IMG/VR virus record: IMGVR_UViG_2579778622_000006
Coordinates: 1 to 20,803 of that record
From: a virus
Taxonomy: Duplodnaviria; Heunggongvirae; Uroviricota; Caudoviricetes
DNA length: 20,803 bases
Strand: one strand, 5' to 3'
The notes below the pieces were generated by a model. It had not been told where the DNA came from and did no database searches. It saw nothing but the letters and a program-made list of their open reading frames with translations. Every line of letters starts with the position of its first letter. Within the stretch, counting starts at the first letter, position 1. Shown one piece after another: positions 2,749 to 17,049 of the stretch. The translations under genes and the position numbers were made by a program.

Positions 2749-2771
2749 TAAAAAAGCCGGATTGCTCCGGC
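2749..2771 (-). terminator. rho-independent terminator after the ProQ/FinO gene
   Basis: Hairpin GCCGGA-ttgc-TCCGGC (2756-2771) with an A-run at 2749-2755 on plus (U-tract on minus). Confidence 0.55.
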
Positions 2772-2796
2772 TTCGTCTCTTCATGTGGTCAGGGTT

Positions 2797-3381: not shown

Positions 3382-3460
3382 GTTCTCCCCCTTTGTGCTG
3401 TTCCACCAGCGGCATCTGCTACCCCGTGTCGCTCCCGCTGGTGTCGTGTTTCCCCGCCTG

Positions 3461-3781
3461 TTAATAACCGTCATCATTTACGTTATCAGGGTAATCACGC
3501 CATATTTCATCAGTAAGCGACGGTAGCCCCATCTGTTGTATTGTCCTGTCTGCGGCCCTTCTGACTGCGTGAACATCATAACGGTTTTCAGGTATCGGGC
3601 GCTTTGCCTTCCTGATACATTCCCTTGCTCTCATTGCCGCAAGTTCTCTGTGCCTGTCTTCCTGAAGAGTAATCATCACATCCTGCCACCTTCTGGCAGC
3701 CCGTCGCCACAGTCCCCTGCTCTCGAGTTCTTCTGCTGTCGCGTCGCTTATTGTCCGGTTCTTCGGTGTGCTGTTGTTCAT
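3461..3781 (-). CDS. PerC-family-like transcriptional regulator
   Basis: 106-aa ORF containing AEELESRGLWRRAARRW, the motif I associate with PerC/Pch-type regulators. Assigned from memory of the motif only. Confidence 0.5.
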   Translation of the reverse strand: MNNSTPKNRTISDATAEELESRGLWRRAARRWQDVMITLQEDRHRELAAMRARECIRKAKRPIPENRYDVHAVRRAADRTIQQMGLPSLTDEIWRDYPDNVNDDGY

Positions 3782-3798
3782 GTTGCTCCCCGCCTGAT

Positions 3799-4209
3799 TC
3801 AGAAGGGTATATCATCTCCGTAGGGGTCATCGCCTCCCGCTGGTGGCTCATTCCCCTGTGTGCCTGTGGTTTTGCGTCTGTTCCCGCCATGACGTGCCGC
3901 ACGCGCACTGATTACGCTGTCTGCGATAACCTGCCAGCCCTGCCGCGTTTCCCCGTTCTGTCCGGTCCACTGGCTCACCTGCATGTTACCCGCCACGCTC
4001 AGGAGTTCACCTTTGCGGTGCTTTGCCAGTGCTTCGGCCTGTCTGCCAAACGCCAGCACAGATAACCACATCGTCGCCGTTCCGTCATCTGCCTGGCTGC
4101 ACGGAAGGGGGACCGCCATACTCGCCATCGCCATTTGTGTCCCCTTGCTGGTGGTCTTTAACTGCGGGTCAGCCACCAGCCGCCCGTAAGCCGCTATCTG
4201 TGCTGTCAT
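3799..4209 (-). CDS. ssb: single-stranded DNA-binding protein (short SSB)
   Basis: 136 aa with OB-fold-like core (WLSVLAFGRQAE...KGELLSVAGNMQVSQWTGQNGETR), a Gly-rich linker and the canonical acidic C-terminal tip DDIPF. Confidence 0.85.
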   Translation of the reverse strand: MTAQIAAYGRLVADPQLKTTSKGTQMAMASMAVPLPCSQADDGTATMWLSVLAFGRQAEALAKHRKGELLSVAGNMQVSQWTGQNGETRQGWQVIADSVISARAARHGGNRRKTTGTQGNEPPAGGDDPYGDDIPF

Positions 4210-4457
4210 GCTGTATGCTCTCCGGTTTTAACGTTGATGGTTGTCACCTGTTCCGCTCCGGCAATCTCCCGTTCTGTCAGCGTGGCAAAATTTGCCGCTA
4301 CCGTTGTCATGAATGCGCTTATCAGTTCGGGATGTGCTTTCGCGTATCCTTCTCCCGCGTGGCGGTCTATCGTTCTGATTGCCACCTTTAAGGCGTGCTC
4401 TGTCATGTCTAACGCTTTATATTTTGGCGCTGTCTTATCTCTGGTTTTTCTGTTCAT
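4206..4457 (-). CDS. hypothetical protein
   Basis: ORF 4206-4487; the upstream extension translates the iteron repeats (GEWWG), so the ATG at 4457 is preferred. Overlaps the ssb start. Confidence 0.4.
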   Translation of the reverse strand: MNRKTRDKTAPKYKALDMTEHALKVAIRTIDRHAGEGYAKAHPELISAFMTTVAANFATLTEREIAGAEQVTTINVKTGEHTA

Positions 4458-4458
4458 T

Positions 4459-4670
4459 CCCCACCACTCCCCACTTTTGCTCCCCACTTTTTAAATTCCC
4501 CACTTGCTCCCCACCTCGTTTTTTGAGTGAATCTAATGCTTTGTTTTTCATTGCGTTTTTTACTCCCCACTTTTTTGGATATATACAGGTGGGAAAGTGG
4601 GGAATTATGTTTCAATTTTGTTAAATTCCCCACTCTCCCCACTTTTACTACCCACTTTTTACAGTGGGTA
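4459..4670. repeat. iteron array, putative satellite replication origin
   Basis: At least 9 copies of TCCCCAC(TTTT) in direct orientation (4459, 4468, 4481, 4496, 4508, 4563, 4626, 4635, 4649) plus inverted copies (GTGGGAAAGTGGGGAA at 4588-4604; CAGTGGGTA at 4662-4670), flanking an AT-rich core (4570-4585). Sits immediately 3' of the helicase gene. Confidence 0.6.
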
Positions 4671-6074
4671 AACATCATCCCCATCGACACAAATCACGCC
4701 GTCTTTTTCCAGCTTGGACAGCCAGCGCCGGAAGTGCTTCATCTCATACCCCAGCTTTTTCATATCGTCGCGGAGAAGGGCGATAGTGCATGGCTCTTTG
4801 TGTGCCGTCCGCGTTCTGATGCACTGCCATAGCGCGGTATGGTTTTCCGTCTTGTTGCCTGCCTCCTCGATGCGCTCCAGTTCAACGGGAGAGCGCGGCT
4901 TATCAACCACCACCAGCGACGTGATTAACTCCCCGTCAGCGTCGGTAAAAAGCTCCACCACGCGTAAATCGTAGGCGGCCTCTTTCAGTTCCTCCGCGTC
5001 CTTCATTTTGGTGCAGGATATAACCAGGGCTTTACTGTCTGCACCTTCTCGGCGAATACGGTATTCAGCGTCCAGAGATGCACGAAATGCACTGGAACCA
5101 CGCGCCCCCTTTGTTTCATCCTTGCCGGAATGGTGGACCACCAGCACCGTGGCCCCTGTGCGTCGTTTCAGGTCGTCACATCCACGGATAAACGCCCCCA
5201 TATCCCGCGCGTCATTTTCATCATTACCGCCAAAGCAACGCGCCAGCGTATCCAGAATAATCATGCGTACCGGTTTACCCGTTTCCCGTTCAACCTGGCG
5301 GGAAGCGATAACCATTTCATCAACATCAAGCGGGGCTGCCGGAAAAATCGGGCGGTTTACCAGGTACAGATTTTTCACCCGTTCATCATTAACGATTTCC
5401 CATGCCTTGATACGACGGGGGACACCAATGCCACCTTCACCGACAACATACATCACCGAACCATGCGCCACCCTGCGGCCTCCCCAGTGGCGCCCCGTGG
5501 CAACATGACACGCCCAGGAACACGCAAGGAATGATTTATAGGAACCGCTCGCACCGTATGTGCTGCACAATGAATTAGCCGGAATCACGCCCTTAACGAC
5601 ATAATCAAGCTGTGTGTCGTATCCTGCAGATCCAATGCTCATGGGTAGCGTGGTTTTTCGCTGGCTGTATTGCTCATCAGTAAGTATTTCCCCGCGCTCT
5701 GCCTGTTCGCGGATCCGTTGCAGGTAGTCGCGCCATTCCTCCCGCTTCTGGCTGTGCATTCCCTCGGGGTAATAACTCGCATCCCGTACACCTGCCGCCG
5801 CCAGTTTTTGCCCGATGGCATTAATATTTGATGGCTTGATGTGGCCTGCCTTGTACAGCCGGACACAATAGCGACCATCGTCGATAATTTTCAGGTCTGC
5901 CAGTTCGTCAAGCTGACTGTCTCCCAGCCATACTGGCGGGACGTTATCGCCAGCAAGTCGCCCGTCCTGTTCCTGCCATTGTTTTGCGTGCGCCCAGGCA
6001 TCACTACCTGCAAAAATAATGACTTCGGTCATTTTGTTGTGTGGCTGTTTTTTTAAGTTCGGTGCCAGTTTCAT
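4659..6074 (-). CDS. replication protein: RecA-fold (AAA_25/DnaB-like) helicase with C-terminal winged-helix
   Basis: 471 aa. Walker A GASGSYKS; Walker B-like ILDTLARCF; VLVVHHSGKD motif typical of RepA/DnaB-like ATPases; C-terminal basic wHTH-like segment. Confidence 0.8.
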   Translation of the reverse strand: MKLAPNLKKQPHNKMTEVIIFAGSDAWAHAKQWQEQDGRLAGDNVPPVWLGDSQLDELADLKIIDDGRYCVRLYKAGHIKPSNINAIGQKLAAAGVRDASYYPEGMHSQKREEWRDYLQRIREQAERGEILTDEQYSQRKTTLPMSIGSAGYDTQLDYVVKGVIPANSLCSTYGASGSYKSFLACSWACHVATGRHWGGRRVAHGSVMYVVGEGGIGVPRRIKAWEIVNDERVKNLYLVNRPIFPAAPLDVDEMVIASRQVERETGKPVRMIILDTLARCFGGNDENDARDMGAFIRGCDDLKRRTGATVLVVHHSGKDETKGARGSSAFRASLDAEYRIRREGADSKALVISCTKMKDAEELKEAAYDLRVVELFTDADGELITSLVVVDKPRSPVELERIEEAGNKTENHTALWQCIRTRTAHKEPCTIALLRDDMKKLGYEMKHFRRWLSKLEKDGVICVDGDDVYPL

Positions 6075-6370
6075 TTTTTATCCCTGAATCCGTTAATCAT
6101 GGTTTTCATCTTCTGAATATTGGCGCGTGCTTTCTCCCTGCTGGTTGGTTTACTGCGGGGCGCTGCCTGTACCAGAGAAAAATCACGCCGGAACTGATAA
6201 ACAGGCATCACGCAGTCATATTCGTAGCCATCACGGCGGTAAGTGATGCGCCGTTCTGCCACGCCTTTAATCGTTACCGTACCGCCGTAGTTATCACGGA
6301 AAATATCGCCGGGACGGATTTCAGGCCGAGCGGGGCCGCTGGCAGTAAAGCCAGAATTTTTCTTTTTCAT
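6071..6370 (-). CDS. hypothetical protein
   Basis: 99-aa ORF with AGGAAA RBS; its stop overlaps the helicase start (ATGA). Confidence 0.5.
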   Translation of the reverse strand: MKKKNSGFTASGPARPEIRPGDIFRDNYGGTVTIKGVAERRITYRRDGYEYDCVMPVYQFRRDFSLVQAAPRSKPTSREKARANIQKMKTMINGFRDKK

Positions 6371-6374
6371 GGTT

Positions 6375-6575
6375 TTATTTTCCTGTCAGTGATTCCGGCT
6401 TTATTCCGGCGCGAATACAGGCTTCAGAAAAAAAAGCCAGAGAACCAATAACCTCATTATTTCTAAGGCGGCATTGCGATTTCACTTTCCCTTTATCCAG
6501 GAATATCAAAACGCGCCCCGTATAATCAGATGGCACATTAAGCACTACAGGTAAGTGCGCTTCATGATTATTCAT
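6375..6575 (-). CDS. hypothetical protein
   Basis: 66 aa from the ATG at 6575, preceded by a perfect AGGAGG (6585-6590). The longer ORF start at 6644 lacks an RBS. Confidence 0.5.
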   Translation of the reverse strand: MNNHEAHLPVVLNVPSDYTGRVLIFLDKGKVKSQCRLRNNEVIGSLAFFSEACIRAGIKPESLTGK

Positions 6576-6855
6576 GGCTAACCACCTCCTGGAATTTTCT
6601 TCTGTAACGCGCCTCTGCCACATATTCAGCATAGTCCGACGCAATATTGAGAATATCGCTACCCGTTCCTGAATGTTCGGCGGTTTCCAGTAAAAAACAT
6701 GCAGCTTTTACCATGTCAGCAACACATAACAGCGCAATATCTGTATCTTCCGGTGTGCCATCAAATTCCTGTTTCAGGGCATTAAAACGATCATCACGCA
6801 TAACCCCATATTCACAATCAGCAATCAGGATGGCTTTGGCCTCATTCAGTGCCAT
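6568..6855 (-). CDS. hypothetical acidic protein, first clear gene of the leftward replication operon
   Basis: Protein-like C-terminal 95 aa of the 6568-7809 ORF; the stop overlaps the next start by 8 nt. Start is uncertain because the ATG at 6855 has no clear RBS. Confidence 0.45.
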   Translation of the reverse strand: MALNEAKAILIADCEYGVMRDDRFNALKQEFDGTPEDTDIALLCVADMVKAACFLLETAEHSGTGSDILNIASDYAEYVAEARYRRKFQEVVSHE

Positions 6856-7009
6856 ATCAGCGGTAAGCTGTGCGTAGGCCAGCAAATGCGGGATTATTGC
6901 CCCTGTATATTCCGGCTCTCTGATAATGTGGTCGGATGTGTTGATTAAATAGTTTGTGCGAAAAATGCACCTGTAACCATCAGTTAACAACGGATATACA
7001 GGGGGGACC

Positions 7010-7180
7010 ATGAATGATAAGGGGGTGCCGTTTGATGTGCTCCTGCAAAAGCTGAATGCTGCACGCGCCGCAAGGGAACGTGAGCGCATGAGTAATAACC
7101 CTGTCCCTCCTGAATTACCTCGCCCTGAACATTTTCCGCTTGAGGATTTCATCAGGGGACGAATCCGAACAAAACGATAA
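7010..7180 (+). CDS. hypothetical small protein (56 aa)
   Basis: ATG preceded by a G-run; shares the motif FPLE(D/R)FI with the 7424-7618 ORF. Ambiguous: the opposite strand is one long open frame. Confidence 0.25.
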   Translation: MNDKGVPFDVLLQKLNAARAARERERMSNNPVPPELPRPEHFPLEDFIRGRIRTKR

Positions 7181-7231
7181 CCGCCGCCGTGATATGAGGC
7201 ATCACGACGCAATGCATTACAGGTGAGCACC

Positions 7232-7348
7232 ATGAACAAATCCATATTATCCCCCACAGTTCTGGACGTAAACACAAAGCAGCGACAGATATTATTACGC
7301 GCCGTCATTAAAGCCAGACACGAGAAATTAAACCAAATCTTAAAATAA
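7232..7348 (+). CDS. hypothetical small protein (38 aa)
   Basis: AGGTGA RBS 5 nt upstream of the ATG; amphipathic, protein-like sequence. Confidence 0.3.
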   Translation: MNKSILSPTVLDVNTKQRQILLRAVIKARHEKLNQILK

Positions 7349-7423
7349 GATACGCCGCTACCGCTGTAAGTCTTCATCAGAAACAGAAAACGCCAGAGCA
7401 GATGAGCACGGAGGTAACTCTTT

Positions 7424-7618
7424 ATGAAAATAAACGAATCAGGGGAAATTACCGAAGCCAGCGTGGTACGCCAGCGGAGGCGGGAACGACGGGTACGGCC
7501 CCCCGCGCCATCCGATAATTTCCCGCTTGAGCGCTTCATCAGTGAACGGCCCCGCATACGCTGGAACGGCACAACCCCATACCCCGAGGAGAGACAGACA
7601 AAAAACAAACAGCGATGA
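7424..7618 (+). CDS. hypothetical small basic protein (64 aa)
   Basis: GGAGGT RBS 8 nt upstream of the ATG; Arg-rich; FPLERFI motif paralogous to the 7010 ORF. Confidence 0.3.
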   Translation: MKINESGEITEASVVRQRRRERRVRPPAPSDNFPLERFISERPRIRWNGTTPYPEERQTKNKQR

Positions 7619-7897
7619 TGAAATCTGGAGGCCAATACCATCACGCAGCCATCAGGAGATTGCTGACGCGCTTCCTGTTCGCTGGTGGCCTCGATGGTAA
7701 TCACGCGCGGTTGTGCAGTGCTCAGGGCGATAAAACGCCACACAAAGGCCGTTTGTGTGTGCGCCAGGCGTGGGGTATGCTGTCTTACAGCCATAAAACT
7801 ACCTCTCATAACGGTTTGTGGTTAGAAGCCCCGTTACTGCTCCAACAGTGCGGGGCTTCGTCGTTTCAATTGCTGAATTGCATGTATCAGCCCTTGT

Positions 7898-7951
7898 GGT
7901 ATTCAGATTACGTTTTGGTGAATAACATTTCAAGTCTTTTTTGGTATTCAC
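7898..7951 (+). promoter_or_regulatory. candidate operator repeats upstream of the RHH gene
   Basis: TGGTATTCA at 7898-7906 and 7942-7950, with an inverted partner GGTGAATAA at 7916-7924 (TATTCA-N12-TGAATA dyad), in the AT-rich region upstream of the 7995 start. Confidence 0.35.
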
Positions 7952-7994
7952 TTTTGTATTACACTGCATCACGTTATTAATCGGAGGTGCAAAC

Positions 7995-8300
7995 ATGTCC
8001 ACGAGTTCTGTTAACAATAAGTCACAGCAACTGAATGCCAGATTTCCACATGAAGTAGTGAGTGGCATTGAGGCATCCCTACAGCCGGGGGAAACTAAAG
8101 CGAATTTTATAGTTACGGCTGTACGCGGAGAGATCGCCCGCCGCCAGGCAGAAGGAAGAGGAGAAAATCCCCTAGTTTCTTCGCTCGATGCACTGGCGCA
8201 GGTGGAAAAAATCGGTGTCAAAGCTGCCGAGGAGATCGGGCAACTCGTCGCCGTTGCGCGTGAAGAACTCCAGCGGCGCAAAGCCAAAGAGCAGGAATAG
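7995..8300 (+). CDS. ribbon-helix-helix-like DNA-binding protein with coiled-coil C-terminus
   Basis: 101 aa from the ATG at 7995 (GGAGGTG RBS). N-terminal beta-strand/helix pattern (LNARFPHEVVSGIEAS...KANFIVTAVRGEIARR) typical of RHH/Arc-type regulators; followed by a terminator. Confidence 0.6.
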   Translation: MSTSSVNNKSQQLNARFPHEVVSGIEASLQPGETKANFIVTAVRGEIARRQAEGRGENPLVSSLDALAQVEKIGVKAAEEIGQLVAVAREELQRRKAKEQE

Positions 8301-8331
8301 CCCACCAGCAAGCCACCACACTGATCACATT

Positions 8332-8360
8332 GGCCACCGTGACAGGTGGCCTTTGTTTTG
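8332..8360 (+). terminator. rho-independent terminator after the RHH gene
   Basis: GGCCACC-gtgaca-GGTGGCC followed by TTTGTTTTG. Confidence 0.6.
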
Positions 8361-8454
8361 CCTGTTATCCGGCAATTGTGGAGCTTCGTCACACGGTTGA
8401 TATAATTCCCCTGCTCAGATTCATTTTTTGCGCGGCAGGTAAATTGTTCAGAAA

Positions 8455-8482
8455 GGCGGCTCCTTATCGGGGCCGCTTTTTT
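8455..8482. terminator. second hairpin with T-tract between the convergent RHH and alpA genes
   Basis: GCGGC-tccttatcgg-GCCGC followed by TTTTTT (8477-8482) on plus; possibly bidirectional. Confidence 0.4.
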
Positions 8483-8508
8483 CGTGTTTGTCATATCTGT
8501 GATACCCG

Positions 8509-8715
8509 TTAAGCAGCCGTTCCGCGTGCTTCCTGTTCGCGTTCTTTCTGCCAGGCCAACACATCATCCTCATACCATCCGCGACGGCGTAAACCAACGC
8601 GAAAACCCTGCGGAAATTCTCCGGCGTTGATCATGCTTTGCAGCGTGCTGTCTGCCTTGATGTGGATAATTTTTTTTACTTCCTGGCGAAAGATAATTTT
8701 TCTGATTGCTTCCAT
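8509..8715 (-). CDS. alpA: AlpA-family phage transcriptional regulator / excisionase-like HTH protein
   Basis: 68 aa; pattern IIFRQEVKK...GEFPQGFRVGLRRRGWYEDDVLAW matches the AlpA/Vis HTH_17 architecture. Confidence 0.8.
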   Translation of the reverse strand: MEAIRKIIFRQEVKKIIHIKADSTLQSMINAGEFPQGFRVGLRRRGWYEDDVLAWQKEREQEARGTAA

Positions 8716-8848
8716 CGTGATTTACCTTGTGAATCCGGTGTATTCCGGTGACAAATACGGTAAATCATCGGATATGGGTAAAAACAGTTCCCACCGTTTT
8801 TAAACGGTATACACCGTTTTTTATATTGATGATTTGAAATGGAATTAT

Positions 8849-8872
8849 AAAAAAAGCGGCATTTCTGCCGCT
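8849..8872 (-). terminator. rho-independent terminator after the orf83/int transcript
   Basis: AGCGGCA-gaaa-TGCCGCT on minus followed by TTTTTTT (plus 8849-8855 is an A-run); 10 nt past the stop at 8883. Confidence 0.55.
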
Positions 8873-8882
8873 TCCAGGATTG

Positions 8883-9134
8883 TTACCGCCATTTTTTGGG
8901 CCTGCCTCCGATCTTCATAGATGCCGGACGTACGACCTTATCAATACTTACCGCCAGATTTCTGGAAGCGCCACGGGATACCAGAAAATCTACTACCTGT
9001 TTTTTTGATGGGGCCGTCGTCCTGTCCTCCGGATCGTAGGTTGACCAAAATTCATGCTGAACCATCAGGGCCAGTTGCAGCCCGTCGCAATTGCATCTGA
9101 TATTTTTTTGCATCTTAACGGTTTCATGTTTCAC
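8883..9134 (-). CDS. hypothetical protein between int and alpA
   Basis: 83-aa ORF (GTG at 9134 or ATG at 9113) with a terminator directly downstream. Start uncertain. Confidence 0.45.
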   Translation of the reverse strand: MKHETVKMQKNIRCNCDGLQLALMVQHEFWSTYDPEDRTTAPSKKQVVDFLVSRGASRNLAVSIDKVVRPASMKIGGRPKKWR

Positions 9135-9211
9135 GGCCTTGTCGTTAAATTTGATGCAATTATACGACGGTTTTACATGGTTTTCGTAGTTTTTACTGGT
9201 TTTCTGTACAG

Positions 9212-10453
9212 CTACACGGCTCGGATACCCCTTTTACCACTGGCGAGGGTTACGCCCGTCGCCGCAGCCTCGACAAATTCGCCCCACCAGCGCATCAGCA
9301 CGATGCGTTTTTCTATGTAGTTGCTCCGGTTGTATGCCCGTCTAACTTCGTTGGTGTCGACGTGGGCAAGTGCCGCCTCTATTACGTCCGGCTCGAATCC
9401 TTCCTCGTTCGCTGCTGTGCTGAATATGGCGCGTAATCCATGAGACACCAGCACGCCAGCGAATCCCATACGCCGCAATGCTGCGTTAGCTGTCTGGCTG
9501 TTCATCGGCTGCTGTGGGTCTTTCAGACTTGGGAAAACGTAATTGCGGTGGTGGCTGATTGGTTTCATGGCCTCCAGCACCGCCATAGCCTGACCGGAAA
9601 GCGGGATAACGTGATCCCTGCGCATCTTCATGCGTCCGGCAGGTATCGTCCATTGCTTCGCGTCCAGGTTGATTTCATCCCACCGCGTTGATGACGCTTC
9701 GGCGGGACGGGTTACGGTCAGTAACTGCCATTCAATCAGTAATCTGGTCTGCCGTTCTGTTGCCGATACTGATAAAGCCTGCATAAGCTCGGGCAGCTGT
9801 TCGGGGCGGATTGTTGGCATATGTTTTTTTACAGGTGAGGGAAACGCCTTACGCACATTCATAGCCGGATTGGCATCAATCAGCCCACTGTTGGCGGCGT
9901 AATCCATTACCTCATTAACGCGCTGTAAAACCCGCTTGAGTGTTTCCAGGTTGCCGCGCTCCTTGATGGGGGTAAGCACTTCAACGAACCTTCGGGCGGT
10001 GAGGGTATCTATTGGCGTGTTGCCGATGAACGGGAATACATATTTATCCAGCGAACGCCAGATGTCTTTAATCGTGTTGGGGGCCAGATTCTGGCTGATT
10101 TTCACCTGGTACCATGCCGCCGCCACATTTTCGAACGTGTTCCCTTGTCTTCGGGCCTCTGTCTCTCTTTTTTGCCTCTCGTGGTCCTGCGGGTCAGTTC
10201 CGGCACTGATTAACGTCCTGTACTCGCTACGGCGTTTTCTGGCATCAGCCAGGGAAACATCTTCAAGCGATCCAAAACTCAGCAATATTCTTTTTTTGTC
10301 CGATGGTCGGTAGTAGGAAAATCTCCAGAGTTTTGATCCAGACGGTTTGACCAGGAGAAAAAGCCCTCCGCCGTCCTGCAGGGTGTACTCCTTTTGCGCT
10401 GGTCTGGCTGCTTTGATCTGCACTGTGGTTAATGGGTGTGTTTTTCTCGCCAT
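9212..10453 (-). CDS. int: tyrosine recombinase, P4-type integrase
   Basis: N-terminal arm-binding-like domain (LTTVQIKAARPAQKEYTLQDGGGLFLLVKPSGSKLWRFSYY), catalytic C-terminus with R...HGLR and terminal RAYNRSNY (Tyr). Adjacent to the tRNA 3' remnant. ATG at 10453 preferred over the GTG at 10471. Confidence 0.9.
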   Translation of the reverse strand: MARKTHPLTTVQIKAARPAQKEYTLQDGGGLFLLVKPSGSKLWRFSYYRPSDKKRILLSFGSLEDVSLADARKRRSEYRTLISAGTDPQDHERQKRETEARRQGNTFENVAAAWYQVKISQNLAPNTIKDIWRSLDKYVFPFIGNTPIDTLTARRFVEVLTPIKERGNLETLKRVLQRVNEVMDYAANSGLIDANPAMNVRKAFPSPVKKHMPTIRPEQLPELMQALSVSATERQTRLLIEWQLLTVTRPAEASSTRWDEINLDAKQWTIPAGRMKMRRDHVIPLSGQAMAVLEAMKPISHHRNYVFPSLKDPQQPMNSQTANAALRRMGFAGVLVSHGLRAIFSTAANEEGFEPDVIEAALAHVDTNEVRRAYNRSNYIEKRIVLMRWWGEFVEAAATGVTLASGKRGIRAV

Positions 10454-10485
10454 ATGTCTATGATTCCACACGAAAAAACAGGGTT

Positions 10486-10912: not shown

Positions 10913-11764
10913 ATGAAAAAAAGAACTAAAAAAGGCAGTAACATTCGTTTCCGAGAACACACTGAGGTTGAGAGGTCTTACATTAGCCTTTATAAGATCT
11001 TCTGCCGCGCTTGTGAAATTTCCGCGGCCATATCACTGAATCAAAGCGGAATTAAGACTGACGGCAGGGGAATACGGGCTGCAAATATTTTCACTCGTCA
11101 AGTGTTGACTGCGCATAGTCTTAAGAAACTACTACCAGTACTGCGAAACGGAGTTAATCCCGATGATACAGTATGGGATGTAACCACTATCGCACTTGTG
11201 TCCAGAAGTGTGATGGAAAATTTTCAGGCGCTTTTTTATTACGGAACGGAAACGGTCTCGGAAGCGGAGGCTGACTTTCGTTTTCGAATTTTCCAGAAAG
11301 ACAGAAATGTTAAATGGCGTGATATCAGACTGAAGGCTGGTGAATCTGAAGAATCACTGGAGGAGTTTTTCACCGGCATACCAAAGCAGCAGGAGGAGAT
11401 AGTGAACCATGAATTCTATAGTTCACTATCTAAAGAACAAAAGAATAGTCTCAAAAACAGGGCCGAAATGTATTATACCAAAGCTGAGTTCGAAGCTCGC
11501 TGCCCGCGGTTAGCCGACATTGCACTACATCACCAGTTACTATCAAATCTGGCTCATCCATTGCCACTGGCTATCCACAGGATTGATGAATTTAGCGGTC
11601 ATGGTGCACCCAGTGAAGCTGACATCTGCTTAGTCATAATATCCCTGAAGGTTGCTACAGACTGCCTAATTGCGTCAGTTGAGGGGATGGGCGAAAAATT
11701 TGCCGATAGTATCGGTATACATTATCGGTCAATGATTGAAGAACTCTCCAATTACTCACTTTGA
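10913..11764 (+). CDS. hypothetical protein, AT-rich cargo gene (candidate accessory or defence function)
   Basis: 283-aa ORF, the only plus-strand gene between the att remnant and the lambdoid int; visibly lower GC than its flanks; convergent terminator hairpin downstream; R-x6-H motif (RLADIALH) in the C-terminal third. Confidence 0.6.
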   Translation: MKKRTKKGSNIRFREHTEVERSYISLYKIFCRACEISAAISLNQSGIKTDGRGIRAANIFTRQVLTAHSLKKLLPVLRNGVNPDDTVWDVTTIALVSRSVMENFQALFYYGTETVSEAEADFRFRIFQKDRNVKWRDIRLKAGESEESLEEFFTGIPKQQEEIVNHEFYSSLSKEQKNSLKNRAEMYYTKAEFEARCPRLADIALHHQLLSNLAHPLPLAIHRIDEFSGHGAPSEADICLVIISLKVATDCLIASVEGMGEKFADSIGIHYRSMIEELSNYSL

Positions 11765-11857: not shown

Positions 11858-13036
11858 TTAGCTGGCTTTAATTTCTCCATGGGGAACGACAACCCAATCT
11901 ATATGATTTTGCGTGTAGATCTTGGTTGACTTCGCATCGCTGTGCGCCATTCGTCCTTGTGGATCGATACCCTGCTGATCGAATAGATGCGCTGCTAGTG
12001 CTCGAATTTCGTGAAAGGTTGGTCTTTCATCCATTGGTAGATTGTCGCATAAACCTAGTTTGTCCCGTGTAGCTGAAAACGACCTACTCAAATAGTCCGG
12101 TGCAACTTGAGTAGGATGTGAAACCTCTTTGCTGCGTTTAACTTGGCGTTCTGGGATCCTGTGAACGACAAACGGACTGGCCACATTATCTCGGCTATCG
12201 TCAATTATCCGTTTCAACTCTTCACCAATTGGTATTGCAACGTGTGACGCCTCTTTTTGTTGCACTTTTTGCCTGTGGATGTAAAGCGTCCCATATATGC
12301 CATTTTGTGGTTGTTCGAACCAGACACATCCACATATACCGTCTTTAGGTTCGCGAATTGAGTAACGGATTCGCGATACTTCGAGTCGTGCATGTGTAGT
12401 CTGCAATGCTAGGTCCATTGCTGTTCTTAACCATGGTGCAGCGGCCTGCCTGATAGCTATAAAATGCTCGAGTGACAGGCGCCGTCTTTTCTTCTCATCA
12501 GTCCTACGCATTTTTTTTCTGATGGCCGGGTTATCCAGCATTAGTGATTCATCGACCGCATAAGAGAACAACTTTTTAAGAAAGCTGACCTTTCTGTTCT
12601 GCACATTTGCGGATGCGCTGGCATGATATTTGTTGATGTAGGTATTAACGTGTTCAAGTTCGATATCGCATGCCGGAACATTTACGAAAAACGCTTTTAC
12701 GCGTAGAGCGTCATTTTTCCAGTCATCTAAGGTGCTCTGGGAAGGACGTTCGTCTTCGATAATTCGGGCCATTATGTGATCAACATGTTCAGCAAATGGT
12801 TTTGCTTCTCCGATAACACCGCCAGATTCTCTAATAAGATTATCTACTGATGGAGATAATTCTGGTCGCATCCTCAGGTTGTACTCTCTGGCGATTGCAA
12901 TGGCTATTGCCCTATCCTTACCTATATTTTTCTTCTTTCCGGTAATAAGTGTGAATTTATAAACACCTCGATCTTTATCAAAAATCAGATAATCAGGAAG
13001 ATGTCTGTATTCTTTTTTACGTGGCCTTGCCGCCAT
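11858..13036 (-). CDS. int: tyrosine integrase, lambda Int family
   Basis: Aligns to recalled lambda Int in several blocks (LSLEHFIAIRQAA..WLRTAMDLA vs LTADEYLKIYQAA..WLRLAMELA; RPTFHEIRALAAHLF vs PPTFHELRSLSARLY). ATG at 13036 with GAGGGGTGA RBS; the ORF-track start at 13042 is a GTG. Confidence 0.9.
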   Translation of the reverse strand: MAARPRKKEYRHLPDYLIFDKDRGVYKFTLITGKKKNIGKDRAIAIAIAREYNLRMRPELSPSVDNLIRESGGVIGEAKPFAEHVDHIMARIIEDERPSQSTLDDWKNDALRVKAFFVNVPACDIELEHVNTYINKYHASASANVQNRKVSFLKKLFSYAVDESLMLDNPAIRKKMRRTDEKKRRRLSLEHFIAIRQAAAPWLRTAMDLALQTTHARLEVSRIRYSIREPKDGICGCVWFEQPQNGIYGTLYIHRQKVQQKEASHVAIPIGEELKRIIDDSRDNVASPFVVHRIPERQVKRSKEVSHPTQVAPDYLSRSFSATRDKLGLCDNLPMDERPTFHEIRALAAHLFDQQGIDPQGRMAHSDAKSTKIYTQNHIDWVVVPHGEIKAS

Positions 13037-13038
13037 GG

Positions 13039-13248
13039 TCACCCCTCATTTATTAACTTGCGAACAGCTTGACTAACCATTGAGTCGACTCCCCATTTTT
13101 CTGTTTCGCAGACAAAAACAGAACCGTCCACGATACGCCCCATGAGCAGACCGTTCTCGACCCAGCGTTTTATCGTTCGGTTGTCAGGAATTGAGCCATT
13201 AGAGAATTCACGGCGTCCCCATTGGCTCGCTTTCATTAGTTTTGCCAT
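13039..13248 (-). CDS. xis: excisionase (Xis-like)
   Basis: 69 aa from the ATG at 13248 (GGAGAAA RBS). Pattern ASQWGRREF...RTIKRWVENGLL...DGSVFV resembles lambda Xis (LQEWNARQ...ETVRRWVRE). Lies immediately upstream of int. Confidence 0.7.
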   Translation of the reverse strand: MAKLMKASQWGRREFSNGSIPDNRTIKRWVENGLLMGRIVDGSVFVCETEKWGVDSMVSQAVRKLINEG

Positions 13249-13309
13249 GGCTGTTTCTCCACTTAACCCGCTGCACACGGGCAGTAATATCAAATTTCAG
13301 TCCTGATAA

Positions 13310-13525
13310 TTAATTTTGTTCTATGGTTGCTACCTGTTTAATTGGCCTGATGCTGTCCAGGAGCAGTCGGCGGCGCGTATTTTCTGCAAAGTGGCGGCGT
13401 CCGGTTTCTTTGTGGTAAAACTCGTTTTTTCCGACGACCCACATCCGCTTTGTCTGGTGCAGTTTTTTTACCTGCGGACCGTTTCGGGTAATAACAATTC
13501 CTGTATGAGTTTTTATCACGCTCAT
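13310..13525 (-). CDS. hypothetical protein
   Basis: 71-aa ORF with GGAGAA RBS; start overlaps the upstream stop (ATGA). Confidence 0.5.
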   Translation of the reverse strand: MSVIKTHTGIVITRNGPQVKKLHQTKRMWVVGKNEFYHKETGRRHFAENTRRRLLLDSIRPIKQVATIEQN

Positions 13526-13884
13526 TTCTTATTCTCCGGTGCTTTCGGCATTACTGCCCAGTGAGTGATATTGACGTTTTCAAGGTCCCCGACCTGAAAT
13601 GTCCACTGCCATTCTCCGGTTTCTTTTTGCCCCCATGTGTACCAGAGAGAACGCCAGCCAATCAGCCAGCCTTCTCCGTTAGCATCAAATAACAGAACAC
13701 TTTCATTTGCTGGTGGCAGTTCAGCTGACACTGGTATTACTTTGTTTTCCAGTGCTGCACATTTAGCTTCAAGCGCATCTAATTTACGCACCAGGTATTC
13801 AGCATCCGTTTCATTCACTTTCAGGTCTCGTGGTACACATCTCCCGCGAAGAAACCCTTCCATTTCGAAAACATTCATGCGCAT
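13522..13884 (-). CDS. hypothetical prophage protein (Trp-rich C-terminal domain)
   Basis: 120-aa ORF, GGAG RBS 8 nt upstream of the ATG; coiled-coil N-terminus and Trp-rich C-terminus. Confidence 0.5.
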   Translation of the reverse strand: MRMNVFEMEGFLRGRCVPRDLKVNETDAEYLVRKLDALEAKCAALENKVIPVSAELPPANESVLLFDANGEGWLIGWRSLWYTWGQKETGEWQWTFQVGDLENVNITHWAVMPKAPENKK

Positions 13885-14411
13885 TTGCGTAACTCCGATA
13901 ACTCGTGAAAGCGTTCCATAAACATCCCGTAGGCATGGCCCGGTGGCATTGGAATCACGTTGAACATCTCTGTTGCCGGGATGCCTTCCAGTACAGGCCA
14001 GAAAGAGCCATCATCAAGCCCGAGATCGCGGCGTTCGGTTGCCAGCATAATGAGATCGGCATATTTCACTGGCGTGCTCATAACAGGAGGTAACCCGTAT
14101 TTCTCACGGATTACGGCGTCTATTTTTTCTTCCATCCGTTTATAGTCAGGAAGAAGGCGTTTCAGTGGAGCGGGGATGTCCTGGCAATACGCTTCTGTTG
14201 CATCATGCATTAACGCTTCAAAAGCAAATTCCTGCGGTACCAGCTGGCTGCAAAGAACCGCATGTTGGGCGACGCTGTAGAAGTGTGAAAGATGTCCTGC
14301 AAAGCGACAGATATTTGAAAGGGAAACCGCGATATCGTTAATATCGATGTTGTCTTTATTTATCCGGTCATAATAAAAATGCTTCCCGGAAAAAGTTTTA
14401 ATAAATGACAT
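13875..14411 (-). CDS. HD-domain metal-dependent phosphohydrolase
   Basis: 178 aa from the ATG at 14411 (GGAG RBS); H...HD signature (VAQHAV ... ALMHDATEAY). Confidence 0.7.
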   Translation of the reverse strand: MSFIKTFSGKHFYYDRINKDNIDINDIAVSLSNICRFAGHLSHFYSVAQHAVLCSQLVPQEFAFEALMHDATEAYCQDIPAPLKRLLPDYKRMEEKIDAVIREKYGLPPVMSTPVKYADLIMLATERRDLGLDDGSFWPVLEGIPATEMFNVIPMPPGHAYGMFMERFHELSELRKCA

Positions 14412-15082
14412 TTCGTTCTCCACGTTATATGCGCTGCACCGCGTTGAATTTTGGTTGCAAGAATCCCTCGCCATCCGGCGATTATTGAGTCAATTACGTT
14501 TCCATAAATGCCCCCGCAGGGGCGGTTAGTTTCTCCACAAAACAGAGAAGAACACCTACGGTAGTCACTGCCGGATGGATTGGGTTATGAGCCCATCGTC
14601 CGGTGATGCTCTTCTCTGTTTTGTAAAAAGGGCGGTGCCAGAAAGGACTAAGGAAAAAACTGGTACCGCCAAAGCAATGGCAGTTGTGGTGGGGTTGTCA
14701 CTCAGGCGTATGGTCAACCTGACAACCCGGTGTCCTCAACGGGGAAAGAGTAACCCCGCCATACTTACCGCCGCGCCATTTCGCGGATTACCACAACGCA
14801 GAGAGCACTTAGCCAGTTACGGCACCACACTTTGTCGCGGTTCCATAAATGCCCTCATCGTTGCACCCTGGTCTCTTCCCAGGCGTCAAACCGAATCGCC
14901 ACGCTGGTTAGGCGTCTTATCAGCATCCTCATTGACTTGCACATTCCGGCTACCTGGTTTGTTTGCCCGAGCAAGGAGTGGATTGTCCCCTTTAACGTCT
15001 CCAGACCGCTAACGACGCATGTGCCATACGCCGTGTTACAACCAAATTTTGTTTGAATCTTGCCTGCTTCATGTTTCTTTTG

Positions 15083-15109
15083 GGTACATTATGTATCTCA
15101 AAGGTACAT
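15083..15109. promoter_or_regulatory. candidate left operator (O_L) dyads
   Basis: GGTACAT-t-ATGTATC (15083-15097) overlapping ATGTATC-tcaaa-GGTACAT (15091-15109); same half-site family as the dyads flanking the cI start. Confidence 0.45.
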
Positions 15110-15153
15110 TGTCAAGTATAAAAAAACCTGCCGAAGCAGGTTCATAACATTGA

Positions 15154-15828
15154 TTAGGCTTTGATTTTGTATCTTCTTGGTTTTCCTGAGAAAATTACTG
15201 TACCAATTATAGAGCAATTACCGTTGATCTTAATGTAAGGCTCAGGCCAGTTTGGGTTTAATGCTTTGAGATAACGCTGTGTTCCATCTTCTATCAATCG
15301 CTTGAAGGTGGTTTCGCCTGTATCGTGCATCAACGCAATAACGTCGTCACCGTGGCAAGCAGGGACTTCAGGATCAACAAAAATCATGTCTCCCGGGCGG
15401 TACTCATCAATCATTGAATCACCAATCACCCGCAAGATATAAGTCATTTCGCCACAGGGTACAGGGCAGGGATACGTTTCCGCTGTGCTCAAATCAACCT
15501 CAGAATAACCAACTTCTTTCCATGCTCCGGCCTGTACCCATGATATGACAGGAACTAACGTAATTTGTTTGTTAGTGATTGAAACATCAGGTTTTTTTGT
15601 GATGTTTGTTGTCTGGTGTTCTTGATCAAGCCATCCGACAGGCAGGTCGAAGCATTTTTCGATGTGCCGTGCCATGCTGTCACCGATATTTTTAGTGGCG
15701 CCATCCCCCATAAACCTGCTGGTTTGGGTTGGCTCGCGATCAATCATGGTGGCAAAGGAAGAATTCCCGCCAACACCATCTCTCAGTTTTCTGGCGTTAG
15801 ACCGCCGGATGTCATGGACTGTTTTCAT
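15154..15828 (-). CDS. cI: CI-like prophage repressor with S24 (LexA-type) autopeptidase domain
   Basis: 224 aa. C-terminal S24 signature with catalytic Ser in VIGDSM and Lys in TFKRL; N-terminal HTH-type region; divergent from the cro-like gene across palindromic operators; no strong SD. Confidence 0.85.
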   Translation of the reverse strand: MKTVHDIRRSNARKLRDGVGGNSSFATMIDREPTQTSRFMGDGATKNIGDSMARHIEKCFDLPVGWLDQEHQTTNITKKPDVSITNKQITLVPVISWVQAGAWKEVGYSEVDLSTAETYPCPVPCGEMTYILRVIGDSMIDEYRPGDMIFVDPEVPACHGDDVIALMHDTGETTFKRLIEDGTQRYLKALNPNWPEPYIKINGNCSIIGTVIFSGKPRRYKIKA

Positions 15829-15844
15829 AACGAAATTAAAACCT

Positions 15845-15915
15845 TTGTACCGTTAAGGTACAAGTATCTTGAAGGTTCATTTCAATCATGTAATATGTAT
15901 ACCGGGGGTACATAT
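15845..15915. promoter_or_regulatory. right operator region (O_R) with two palindromes between cI and cro-like starts
   Basis: TTGTACC-gttaa-GGTACAA (15845-15863) and ATATGTATACC-ggg-GGTACATAT (15893-15915). Confidence 0.5.
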
Positions 15916-15918: not shown

Positions 15919-16119
15919 ATGAAAGCGTATTGGAACTCTTTAACCAAAGAACAGCAGGGCGATTTGGCCGGAAAAGTTGGTTCAACACCTGGCTACTTAC
16001 GGCTGGTTTTCAATGGCTATAAAAAAGCCAGCTTTGTACTGGCTAAAAAACTTGAGCAATGCACATCAGGAGCAATTACGAAATCTGACTTAAGACCGGA
16101 TATCTATCCGAAAGATTAG
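15919..16119 (+). CDS. Cro-like HTH regulator (Cro/YdaS-like)
   Basis: 66 aa from the ATG at 15919, immediately after the O_R dyad; HTH-like segment LAGKVGSTPGYLRLVFNGYKKAS; divergent from the repressor. Confidence 0.6.
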   Translation: MKAYWNSLTKEQQGDLAGKVGSTPGYLRLVFNGYKKASFVLAKKLEQCTSGAITKSDLRPDIYPKD

Positions 16120-16150: not shown

Positions 16151-16714
16151 ATGAGGCTAACCGTGGGTAAGCATCACTGGAAAGTAAAAAAACAGCCTGA
16201 GTGGTATGTGAAAGCGGTCAGAAAAACTATCGCGGCGTTGCCGGGTGGTTATGCTGAGGCTGCTGACTGGCTGGATGTAACAGAGAACGCATTATTTAAC
16301 CGCCTTCGTGCAGATGGCGATCAGATTTTCCCGCTGGGATGGGCAATGATTTTGCAACGTGCTGGTGGCACTCACTTCATTGCTGACGCTGTGGCGCAGT
16401 CTGCAAATGGCGTCTTTGTGTCTCTTCCTGATATCGAGGATGTGGACAACGCCGATATTAACCAGCGCTTGCTGGAAGTCATTGAACAGATTGGCAGTTA
16501 TTCCAAACAGATTCGTTCGGCAATCGAAGACGGTGTGGTGGAACCGCATGAGAAGACAGCAATTAACGACGAGCTGTACCTGTCAATTTCGAAGCTGCAG
16601 GAGCATGCAGCACTGGTCTACAAAATTTTTTGCGTTTCAGAAAGTAATGACGCCCGCGAGTGTGCAGCTCCGGGCGCCGTGGCGTGTCGTGACTGTGGAG
16701 AAACTAACGCATGA
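16151..16714 (+). CDS. hypothetical early protein (position of a CII-like regulator)
   Basis: 187-aa ORF. The ATG at 16151 lacks an SD; the GTG at 16163 has a GAGG RBS. Stop overlaps the next ORF start (ATGA). Confidence 0.5.
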
Positions 16715-17049
16715 ACAGTTTAACAACACACTACCGTCGCTCGCAACTGATTGCGCTTCCTGTACCGGGTGGAAAAGCGAAGGTGGAATATTGCTATGCA
16801 GTGAATGTACCAGGTGACAGGGAAATTGTAACCCACAGCTTTGCAGAGTGGGCTGTGGGTGATTTCAACCGGCAGAAGGAGACAGTCCTTTGCGACAAGT
16901 TAACCGCTGGTTCAAAGATCACTACGGAGTGCCCGTCAGAGTCATTCGTTGGGAGCCGGAAACACAACGGGTTATCTACCTCCGCGAAGGTTATGAGCAT
17001 GAATGCTTCAGTCCGCTCGAACAGTTTCGTCGTAAATTCAGGGAAATAG
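16711..17049 (+). CDS. hypothetical protein; 3' half doubtful (possible frameshift or overlapping small gene)
   Basis: ORF start coupled to the upstream stop; the first 57 aa are protein-like, the rest is Ser-rich, while an alternative frame (16890-17069) is protein-like. Confidence 0.3.

Follow-up and report, generated by a model that had tools for sequence, protein, structure and literature searches.

A probable pL-driven early-left unit with a K-12-type yfdR gene and a conserved structured leader RNA in an N-less lambdoid prophage

Introduction

YfdR of E. coli K-12 has been described as an HD phosphohydrolase of the YfbR-like kind, YfbR being a 5'-deoxynucleotidase (Noguchi & Katayama 2016, PMC4776307). 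Its affinity for nucleotides is much below that of YfbR, according to what is cited of Zimmerman 2008 in PMC4776307. The protein binds domain I of DnaA (Phe46) and moderately blocks, or competes with, the binding of DiaA and DnaB to DnaA (PMC4776307). Initiation at oriC is inhibited by multicopy (oversupplied) yfdQ and yfdR together with either yfdS or yfdT, and a yfdQRST deletion in K-12 gave no phenotype (PMC4776307). The inhibition of DnaA by YfdR has so far been seen just on overexpression and for a protein from a cryptic prophage.

For the region upstream of such genes, the antisense RNA sRNA-17 of E. coli K1 RS218 has been reported; its locus is in the leader that separates the repressor gene from yfdP, and the RNA is antisense to the pL transcript (PMC7719688). 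In a related prophage, replacement of a leader segment containing sRNA-17 by a cassette raised the expression of yfdP by log2 6.6 and that of yfdR by log2 4.1 (PMC7719688). Here, we describe the early-left genes and their leader in a 20,803-nt stretch of viral DNA (IMG/VR record IMGVR_UViG_2579778622_000006, positions 1 to 20,803), referred to as the window.

Results

The early-left unit and its control region

The following genes and control elements were assigned:

11858–13042, minus strand: lambda-type tyrosine integrase (int), last gene of the leftward unit (Pfam Arm-DNA-bind_1, 26.7 bits, cut-off 22)
13039–13251, minus strand: probable excisionase (xis-like), 70 aa (weak match to PHROG 629, excisionase, E 0.005)
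13310–13525, minus strand: 71-aa ORF, orf71 (PHROG 1226, a phage family annotated 'unknown function', E 2e-40)
13522–13884, minus strand: yfdS, DUF551 protein, 120 aa (97% identity to K-12 YfdS)
13875–14411, minus strand: yfdR, HD-domain protein and 5'-deoxynucleotidase homologue, 178 aa (K-12 identity, PHROG 318, PDB 2gz4)
15072–15088 and 15092–15108: left operators of pL (pattern TGTACC-N5-GRTACA)
15115–15088, minus strand: promoter pL, TTGACA-16-CATAAT (11/12 in the promoter scan)
15154–15828, minus strand: prophage repressor of the YmfK/cI type, LexA-like, with an S24 peptidase domain (Pfam Peptidase_S24, E 1.5e-26)
15846–15862 and 15896–15912: operators of pR (same pattern)

The strong promoter pL and its operators are real: the operator pattern occurs at four sites, giving 6 strand-matches compared to 0.02 expected. 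The repressor is named ymfK and assigned to the LexA family in RefSeq relatives, and the immunity module ymfK-ymfT-ymfL-ymfM is of the same type in e14. The prophage is an N-less lambdoid in which e14-type immunity is combined with early-left genes of the CPS-53/SfV type. All ORFs of the window from int to the replication genes are intact, and the window has kept the repressor gene, the operators and cro as well as cII-like and O-like genes.

The interval from pL to xis/int holds three genes, yfdR, yfdS and orf71, all on the minus strand, so that the order of the unit is leader, yfdR, yfdS, orf71, xis and int. Stop and start codons overlap at yfdR/yfdS (10 nt, equal to the overlap in CPS-53), yfdS/orf71 and xis/int. 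None of the ORFs between pL and xis matched N, exo, bet or gam in Pfam, NCBIfam or PHROGs, and the Red/Gam families (exo, bet, gam) were absent among all ORFs from pL to int. Directly downstream of pL, no N-like ORF was found, the sense-strand ORFs in 14412–15080 being all of 50 aa or less and devoid of a credible family match; the 50-aa one has a TTG start and overlies a hairpin. These small leader ORFs, as well as a 145-aa ORF on the plus strand (14575–15012; again no credible family match), were rejected as genes. N, exo, bet and gam are also missing between the repressor gene and int/xis in every annotated relative examined (e14, UMNF18, VE-V11-M and Ayreon), and none of them is recognisable beside yfdP-T in CPS-53, where the immunity region is lost. 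ORF calls and family searches thus confirm the preliminary description of this DNA, which had listed three genes between the left operator and xis, the HD gene first, and no N, exo, bet or gam.

Operator and first gene are not adjacent but separated by a non-coding leader of ~660 nt (14412–15080), which the preliminary description does not mention.

YfdR and the distal genes

The ATG of yfdR is located at 14411 and preceded by GGAGA at a distance of 7 nt, and the corresponding 537-nt gene is annotated in RefSeq relatives, where the product is likewise named 5'-deoxynucleotidase. The protein is identical to YfdR of K-12 CPS-53 in 171 of 178 positions (96%; full length, no gaps, E 4e-134), matches PHROG 318, labelled 'deoxyribonucleoside 5' monophosphate phosphatase', with E 2e-109, and PDB 2gz4 (Atu1052) with E 1.4e-14. 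The metal ligands are H50, H69, D70 and D119, and all four fall into the conserved His/HD/Asp columns in the alignment with Atu1052. In the alignment with YfbR, the housekeeping 5'-deoxynucleotidase of E. coli, H69, D70 and D119 are matched as well, but the first His (H50) is not. The HDxxE...D..P.P.K motif and the distal Asp are common to both proteins (pairwise E 8e-5 over the motif), with HDATEAYCQD of YfdR aligned to HDASEVLTGD of YfbR, and E73 and D78 are the counterparts of the conserved Glu and Asp of the YfbR motif. The identity to YfbR over the MAFFT alignment is just 25%, and YfdR fails the YfbR equivalog model (NCBIfam NF003009; 20 bits, cut-off 122 bits) and narrowly misses Pfam PF12917 (24.4 bits, gathering score 25.9). 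On account of this low identity and of the scores below the family cut-offs, YfdR is a relative, not an orthologue, of YfbR. Phages widely encode YfdR-like proteins (333 phage records), and both lytic and temperate phages of many hosts are among them.

As judged by sequence, the HD protein of the window is an intact orthologue of K-12 YfdR and the gene following it encodes an orthologue of K-12 YfdS. The earlier assignment of the first gene to the HD-domain proteins was right, and the protein is not the inactive remnant with lost metal ligands that had been considered, all four ligands being kept. It does have a close characterised homologue, K-12 YfdR, although this one is encoded by a prophage and has no housekeeping role.

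YfdS reaches the Pfam DUF551 cut-off exactly (22.0 bits) and matches PHROG 583 with E 2e-81. The product of orf71, annotated as 'hypothetical protein' in relatives, has no similarity to K-12 YfdT and so is not YfdT. The xis-like ORF matches the HTH model DUF4817 (E 0.003), shows no similarity to TorI of CPS-53, and its stop codon overlaps the start of int. For the integrase, matches to Phage_int_SAM_1 and Phage_integrase are weak and under their cut-offs (both E 0.0011).

Loss of yfdP and yfdQ

In most relatives, yfdR is the third gene, preceded by yfdP and yfdQ (~1.3 kb), which are missing from the window. The junction was located by a break in the BLAST alignment and by its hybrid sequence:

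14512–14527, minus strand: hairpin GCCCCUGCGGGGGC, carrying the yfdP-yfdQ junction

The alignment to L002 breaks at 14512–14523. In relatives, yfdP is preceded by CGACCTTGCAGGGTCG and yfdQ is followed by GCCCCTGCGGGGGC; the window carries a hybrid of both. The operon is short because yfdP and yfdQ were lost at a junction inside the hairpin. Of the gene neighbourhood yfdQ-yfdR-yfdS, the window has yfdS next to yfdR, whereas yfdQ and also yfdP are absent. At 95% identity or more, the exact junction was present in 9 E. coli records only; in strain EC20-4B-2, which has the same arrangement, yfdS is frameshifted and the immunity region is lost. The 'minimal operon' does not reflect design, the window containing a rare deletion derivative without yfdP-yfdQ.

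A conserved structured RNA downstream of pL

The leader contains four further elements:

14532–14629, minus strand: long hairpin, 98 nt, with a ~25-bp stem (fold of 14530–14650)
14623–14670, minus strand: terminator-like hairpin in the pL transcript (GGCGGUACCAG, 18-nt loop, CUGGCACCGCC, then CUUUUUAC)
14626–14797, plus strand: putative positional equivalent of the antisense RNA sRNA-17 (alignment A5 with the sRNA-17 locus)
14858–15039, minus strand: module A, a conserved structured leader RNA of ~182 nt downstream of pL, from which it would be transcribed (covariance model R1)

Module A is present in a single copy in the window and scores 205.6 bits against covariance model R1. The structure is supported by covariation: among 21 diverse homologues, 97.7% of the cells pair, the slid controls reaching 30-48%, and in 8 of 23 pairs both sides have changed. 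The RNA has at least five helices, and its strands GGUAGCCGGAAUGUGCAAG and GGCGAUWCGGUKUGAC are invariant. None of the reading frames stays open throughout the members, whose lengths differ by non-multiples of 3. Rfam 15 gave nothing over module A, either in the gathering scan of the window or in permissive scans of the leader and of divergent homologues. A tRNA/tmRNA scan of the window was negative, which rules out a degenerate tRNA as cause of the similarity to P1 and phiV10 beside tRNA genes.

About 25% of complete E. coli genomes carry module A, and it is also found in P1-like and epsilon15-like phages. In a species-dereplicated genome scan with a 19-nt core, 3 loci only were hit (Kluyvera, Escherichia sp. 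and one likely chance match), so that module A is confined to enterobacterial phages. In several lambdoids with differing repressors, it directly follows the repressor gene, at the place expected for pL. In P1 and epsilon15-like phages it occurs outside any pL context, within the C1-controlled ban operon of P1/P7 and downstream of a site annotated as repressor operator in the epsilon15-like phages. In each of the three settings found, the region that contains or immediately precedes module A is under annotated or inferred control by a repressor.

By eye, the hairpin CCUGG-GAAGAGA-CCAGG and the downstream UGCUCUCUG can be read as lambda boxB and boxA. This reading was dropped, since neither order nor spacing fits, an N partner is lacking and P1 has the hairpin too.

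Further leader elements

The long hairpin folds with -47.6 kcal/mol (z -5.5; none of 200 shuffles as stable) and is kept upstream of yfdP in relatives; it would probably be an RNase III-type processing site in the leader. The terminator-like hairpin is located ~450 nt downstream of pL and ~210 nt upstream of yfdR; the fold of 14610–14680 gave -18.9 kcal/mol (z -2.5), and a site of the terminator scan (14684–14665) overlaps it.

At the sRNA-17 position, the window agrees with the published locus in the two flanks and in the closing inverted repeat GTTGTGGTG..CACCACAAC. Compared with the 193-nt sRNA-17, the first ~67 nt and the last ~10 nt align, but a central cassette of ~100 nt does not; alleles with such a differing cassette were called 'degenerative' by the authors (PMC7719688). 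Both strands of the cassette were folded. The sole Rfam signal was a sub-threshold match to C4 (RF01695) on the plus strand at 14673–14775 (21.3 bits, gathering score 45, E 0.21). When mapped here, the segment that was replaced in PMC7719688 also contains the terminator-like hairpin, and the derepression of yfdP and yfdR in the sRNA-17 deletion could be simple read-through from the inserted resistance cassette.

Discussion

Most likely, the locus represents the early-left transcription unit, driven by pL under repressor control, of an N-less lambdoid prophage with e14-type immunity and CPS-53/SfV-type genes. Upon SOS cleavage of the repressor, pL would fire, and YfdR, probably aided by YfdS, would dampen initiation on the host chromosome and/or trim dNMP pools at an early stage of lytic development; excision of the prophage would fall to xis and int, the last genes of the unit. 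With no N protein, yfdR to int would be reached only by transcription through the ~660-nt structured leader and its terminator-like hairpin, and the 182-nt RNA, the cassette at the sRNA-17 position and the long RNase III-type hairpin may set how much transcription reaches the genes. As yfdQ, which is required for the multicopy phenotype, is absent, the effect on DnaA and oriC may be weakened here. This need for yfdQ and the normal behaviour of the K-12 yfdQRST deletion speak against the proposed action of YfdR (PMC4776307). The role in host takeover proposed in the preliminary description has published backing via DnaA (PMC4776307), but not via the degradation of a signalling molecule.

There is some chance, albeit a clearly smaller one, that the main role of YfdR is manipulation of nucleotide pools by dephosphorylation of dNMPs early after induction, and not binding of DnaA. 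The pre-early 5'-deoxyribonucleotidase Dmp of phage T5 is said to dephosphorylate dNMPs early. The catalytic HD..E..D motif of YfdR is intact, RefSeq and PHROG call the protein a 5'-deoxynucleotidase, and the family is kept in lytic and temperate phages of many hosts, most of which would be unable to share the contacts of E. coli DnaA, whereas the low nucleotide affinity cited from Zimmerman 2008 speaks against this role. It is unlikely that the operon is a decaying remnant whose three genes are carried passively, and without current role, by a cryptic prophage. The deletion of yfdP-yfdQ, the state of yfdS and of the immunity region in EC20-4B-2 and the cryptic nature of CPS-53 and e14 in K-12 would fit such decay, but the genes from int to the replication genes and the immunity elements of the window are preserved, and the YfdR and YfdS proteins are 96-97% identical to those of K-12 and free of frameshifts.

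Very unlikely, in our view, is a counter-defence enzyme that hydrolyses signalling molecules, e.g. cyclic nucleotide second messengers or further signals of defence systems, and is encoded first so as to act immediately. The HD superfamily does include signalling-nucleotide hydrolases, yfdR is first after the leader in the deletion variant of the window, and YfdR-like proteins are widespread among phages. However, the nearest characterised relatives are dNMP phosphatases, as seen from the YfbR motif and the PHROG label, the published partner of YfdR is DnaA (PMC4776307), and no link to anti-defence was found in literature mentioning YfdR. Since yfdR is the third gene in most relatives, its first position is an accident of deletion, and the counter-defence role suggested in the preliminary description was left with nothing in its support.

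Within the pL unit as we propose it, module A may represent an undescribed class of phage structured RNA, a suggestion that we make tentatively. It could modify RNA polymerase, i.e. allow put-like, N-independent read-through of the terminator before yfdR..int, or be excised in a tRNA- or RNase III-type manner and act in trans. Control of the early-left genes by such an RNA would account for the lack of an N gene.

YfdR and YfdS had already been known from E. coli prophages and the operon owes its shortness to a deletion, so the finding of the HD gene as originally stated adds nothing new; it is ordinary because the gene is a 96%-identical copy of the yfdR already studied. A natural allele that lacks yfdQ and yfdT and is still joined to an intact immunity region is of modest practical use, and could test whether the inhibition of DnaA by YfdR matters in real prophage induction. 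The unannotated structured leader RNA, carried by about a quarter of complete E. coli genomes and by model phages such as P1, is the more interesting part and merits a separate look; if it controls early transcription, it bears on how N-less lambdoids pass terminators.

Compared with yfdP-yfdQ-yfdR-yfdS-yfdT of CPS-53 (KpLE1) in K-12, the window encodes YfdR and YfdS of 96% and 97% identity in the same order, but lacks yfdP, yfdQ and yfdT and keeps the immunity region and pL that CPS-53 has lost. Where CPS-53 has yfdT, the window has a 71-aa ORF unrelated to it, and its xis (not TorI) and int differ from those of CPS-53. SfV, cdtI, 2H10, Ayreon and Stx2c-converting phages share 95% DNA identity over the repressor gene, leader, yfdR and yfdS, and have the same leader, but yfdP-yfdQ stand between leader and yfdR. 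The element at the leader position of sRNA-17 has the 5' hairpin and the closing inverted repeat in common with it, whereas the central ~100 nt are unrelated in sequence; sRNA-17 is distinct from the 182-nt module A and lies on the opposite strand.

The put RNAs of HK022 and HK639, which mediate N-independent antitermination, resemble the arrangement in the window in that a structured RNA is located shortly downstream of pL in an N-less lambdoid. Stem I of putL and the window RNA share the string ACGGCG..CAUGCGUCG..AGCG (6 + 9 + 4 nt only), but put comprises ~74 nt and two stems compared to 182 nt and at least five helices, and G35, which is essential in put, is not conserved in the window RNA. 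The features of put used in this comparison, the conserved G35 and U28 context among them, were read from putL/putR of HK022 and the annotated putL-like RNA of HK639. Read-through of terminators by put depends on the zinc-binding domain of the RNA polymerase beta' subunit. Model R1 did not match the put regions of HK022 and HK639, Rfam has no put family, and the 31-nt gap between cro and the cII-like gene in the window has no room for a second RNA copy as partner in the manner of putR. Membership of module A in the put RNAs was rejected, given the shared string alone and the lack of a covariance model match, and put is kept as an analogy.

Relative to the early-left operon of lambda (N, ..., gam, bet, exo, xis, int), the window lacks N, a nutL/boxB with N partner, gam, bet and exo. 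The N leader of lambda carries an RNase III site. Common to lambda and the window are the leftward promoter and operators beside the repressor gene, the distal xis and int, and a structured leader with a long hairpin ahead of the first gene.

Gene content and control of the early-left operon

The window includes an arm of a lambdoid prophage. In order of transcription, its minus strand carries a repressor gene, a gap, the gene for an HD-domain protein (yfdR), two small open reading frames (ORFs), an xis-like ORF and an integrase gene.

Genes and signals of the early control region
15919-16119, plus strand: cro-like gene, right of the repressor gene
15154-15828, minus strand: LexA-like repressor gene (Peptidase_S24, E 1.5e-26)
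15115..15088, leftward: pL promoter, TTGACA-16-CATAAT
13875-14411, minus strand: yfdR, HD-domain protein of 178 aa, after a long gap from the repressor gene
13522-13884, minus strand: 120-aa ORF
13310-13525, minus strand: 71-aa ORF
13039-13251, minus strand: xis-like 70-aa ORF (weak assignment)
11858-13042, minus strand: tyrosine integrase

Four sites, of which two overlie pL and two fall in the cI-cro gap, carry an operator pattern of 17 bp (TGTACC-N5-GRTACA), with six strand-matches versus 0.02 expected by chance. The arrangement and identity of the genes, an unbroken catalytic motif in YfdR and the control of pL by the repressor are taken as shown. The ORF map and the operator sites confirm that three genes lie between the left operator and xis, as the preliminary description had it. 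Since the first of them has an HD domain and none of the ORFs matched an N, exo, bet or gam family, that observation was correct.

On the plus strand, the repressor gene is followed to the right by cro-like, cII/YmfL-like, YmfM-like, O-like, PerC-like, methyltransferase, RusA and regulator genes. A 112-aa ORF of PHROG 1170 (16711-17049, plus strand), directly after the ymfL-like gene, stands at the position of ymfM in e14; ymfM is annotated in K-12 as a cell division inhibitor.

At 1-10471, in tandem with the prophage, is a separate integrative element that may be akin to a capsid-encoding phage satellite (cfPICI-like). It has its own integrase (9212-10471) and genes for an AAA_25 primase/helicase-like protein (4659-6074), SSB, a ProQ/FinO-domain protein (2797-3477), DUF4222, a lambda E-like capsid (1277-2332) and a D-like decoration protein (930-1265). 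Between the two integrases, a 283-aa ORF (10913-11764, plus strand) had no Pfam or PHROG match; strain EC20-4B-2 has a hypothetical protein gene, also of 852 nt, at the equivalent place adjoining the integrase (L134 12914-13765).

A conserved structured RNA in the leader

The leader between pL and yfdR (15080 to 14412, ~660 nt) is non-coding, with no credible ORF, and its fold is more stable than those of shuffled sequences (z -2.7). It is a mosaic, the modules of which occur separately in other phages.

Structured elements of the leader
15039-14858, minus strand: module A, ~182 nt (covariance-model alignment)
14797-14683: cassette with closing inverted repeat GTTGTGGTG..CACCACAAC, second leader module (b)
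14670-14623, minus strand: 11-bp G+C-rich hairpin, then CUUUUUAC (terminator scan, fold)
14629-14532, minus strand: hairpin of 98 nt, stem ~25 bp (z -5.5)

The RNA of module A recurs in P1 (L005 2509-2697), O157 typing phage 10 (L006 2496-2678), mEp390 (L135 2435-2600), SPN9TCW (L136 2435-2605) and Kluyvera (L129 6394-6565). Homologues from IMG/VR, P1/P7/SJ46, phiV10/epsilon15/SPN1S-type phages, mEp390, Klebsiella and Enterobacter phages, one phage recorded on Stenotrophomonas and one Kluyvera genome were aligned by covariance model (R1). For the four-helix structure, 97.7% of the cells in 21 diverse sequences are in standard pairs, as against 30-48% with slid partners; both sides changed in 8 of 23 pairs, and the covariation score is 0.317 versus 0.135 for shuffles. 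The invariant parts, GGUAGCCGGAAUGUGCAAG, GGCGAUWCGGUKUGAC, a YUMACCA loop and a GAAGAGW loop, are loops and joining strands. Judging from its G·U pairs, the RNA is on the strand transcribed from pL. No reading frame stays open across the whole set of members, whose lengths differ by amounts that are not multiples of three.

Of 5426 complete E. coli genomes, 1375 carry module A, and 255 of its places are on plasmids. Among lambdoids whose repressors differ (the window, mEp390, BUCT708, strain 510016), it lies at most ~250 nt downstream of the repressor gene; P1 has it in its C1-controlled ban operon, where it stands between tRNA-Ile and ban. In epsilon15-type phages it follows a site annotated as repressor operator and directly precedes tRNA-Arg or a terminator, a position marked 'RNaseIII, mRNA processing' by the epsilon15 annotators. 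Each setting found is in or just after a region that is repressor-controlled by annotation or prediction, and it often abuts a tRNA gene. RefSeq has no annotation at the position of module A. Rfam 15, searched with the window and divergent members, gave no matching family, and the RNA was also absent from a literature search of partial coverage; of the features described here, it alone may be new. We tentatively consider a hitherto undescribed RNA of the early operon that either stands in for N or works in trans, a reading to which we give somewhat less than one chance in three. Its identification as a put RNA was rejected by sequence comparison with HK022/HK639, to which R1 gave no match.

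A 26-aa arginine-rich ORF (MKQARFKQNLVVTRRMAHASLAVWRR; 14992-15072, minus strand) starts ~9 nt past the predicted pL start site and extends into helix 1 of the RNA. It is unlikely to be a gene: the first 11 codons precede the conserved RNA (15039), and in that stretch the P1- and phiV10-type copies are unrelated in sequence. In vB_SmeS_BUCT708, the sequence directly downstream of the module A copy (L138 2683-2802) reached 50 bits with the RprA model of Rfam, for which the gathering score is 70, and may be a phage-borne RprA-like sRNA.

Downstream hairpins and the position of sRNA-17

The plus strand of the cassette gave a weak, sub-threshold C4-like match (21 bits, with the gathering score at 45). 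A related prophage has sRNA-17, the antisense RNA of 193 nt published for E. coli K1 (PMC7719688), at exactly the position of the cassette and on the opposite strand from yfdP (L142 2501-2693). The flanks, 5' hairpin and closing inverted repeat of sRNA-17 are common to its positional equivalent in the window, 14626-14797 (plus strand); the central cassette differs and has the look of an exchangeable specificity module set between conserved stems. Replacement of sRNA-17 by a resistance cassette raised yfdP by log2 6.6 and yfdR by log2 4.1 (PMC7719688), which could reflect loss of the antisense RNA, loss of the terminator-like hairpin described below or read-through from the resistance cassette.

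By scan and fold, the hairpin at 14670-14623 looks like a terminator. The 98-nt hairpin directly after it would form a long duplex of the kind cut by RNase III and, because its 5' arm includes the U-tract of the terminator, these two signals could act either as alternatives or in sequence.

Identity of YfdR and probable working of the operon

Relatives with ~95% DNA identity to the window, among them SfV, cdtI, 2H10, Ayreon, Stx2c phages and many E. coli prophages, have two further genes, yfdP and yfdQ, between leader and yfdR. Aligned to such a relative, the window forms two pieces that meet at 14512-14523, with ~1.3 kb missing. In the relative, a hairpin CGACCTTGCAGGGTCG precedes yfdP and a second one, GCCCCTGCGGGGGC, lies after yfdQ; the window carries their hybrid, AACCG joined to CCCCTGCGGGGGC. 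At 95% identity or higher, just 9 E. coli records have the exact junction; by comparison, 4791 of 5426 genomes contain some part of the 3-kb region.

The product of the 120-aa ORF shares 97% identity with YfdS, and the 71-aa ORF, a member of PHROG 1226 (a family without assigned function), is unrelated to K-12 YfdT. YfdR-like proteins were found in phages of many hosts (333 records), and among solved structures the closest relative is Atu1052 (PDB 2gz4, from structural genomics). Assignment of YfdR as an orthologue of the housekeeping enzyme YfbR was rejected at 25% identity, with 20 bits versus a 122-bit cut-off for the NCBIfam equivalog and 24.4 versus 25.9 bits for Pfam YfbR-like.

For the yfdQRST cluster of K-12, the minimal set for the oversupply effect is yfdQ plus yfdR plus one of yfdS and yfdT. 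Purified YfdR binds DnaA, for which DnaA Phe46 is important, and has a moderate inhibitory effect on the binding of DiaA and of DnaB to DnaA; in vitro, oriC replication is inhibited by extracts with an oversupply of YfdQRST, and deletion of the cluster has no phenotype (PMC4776307). Its authors describe YfdR's function as still elusive.

The preliminary description had proposed a role in host takeover or counter-defence. The former finds published support through DnaA; the latter has none in the literature, and a counter-defence hydrolase is very improbable. It had also held that an inactive remnant or a close homologue of a characterised housekeeping enzyme would speak against this reading. 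Lost metal ligands are excluded, H50, H69, D70 and D119 all being intact, and a decaying operon is unlikely, even with the missing segment. The second objection largely holds, though for a prophage protein and not a housekeeping enzyme: the HD protein shares 171 of 178 residues (96%, no gaps) with YfdR of the cryptic K-12 prophage CPS-53. A pure nucleotide-pool enzyme is a possibility of about one in four; RefSeq names the orthologues 'yfdR: 5'-deoxynucleotidase' and the HDxxE...D motif common to YfbR is intact. Against it, PMC4776307, citing Zimmerman 2008, treats YfdR as structurally homologous to YfbR but far weaker in its nucleotide affinities.

We favour a unit in which SOS induction would cleave the repressor and pL would fire. 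To reach yfdR-yfdS-orf71-xis-int, transcription would have to get through the structured leader and past the terminator-like hairpin; YfdR, together with YfdS, would then restrain host initiation and/or dephosphorylate dNMPs, while Xis and Int would excise the prophage. DnaA binding, weak nucleotidase activity and inhibition of initiation on oversupply are taken from the literature (PMC4776307). Without YfdQ, on which the multicopy phenotype depends, the effect on host initiation may be weaker in this phage.

As all annotated relatives examined also lack N, exo, bet and gam between the repressor gene and int/xis, this absence looks normal for the phage group. The short HD operon is an already known, ordinary arrangement; the immunity module of the window, ymfK-ymfT-ymfL-ymfM, is that of K-12 e14, the early-left arm of which is also short and without N.
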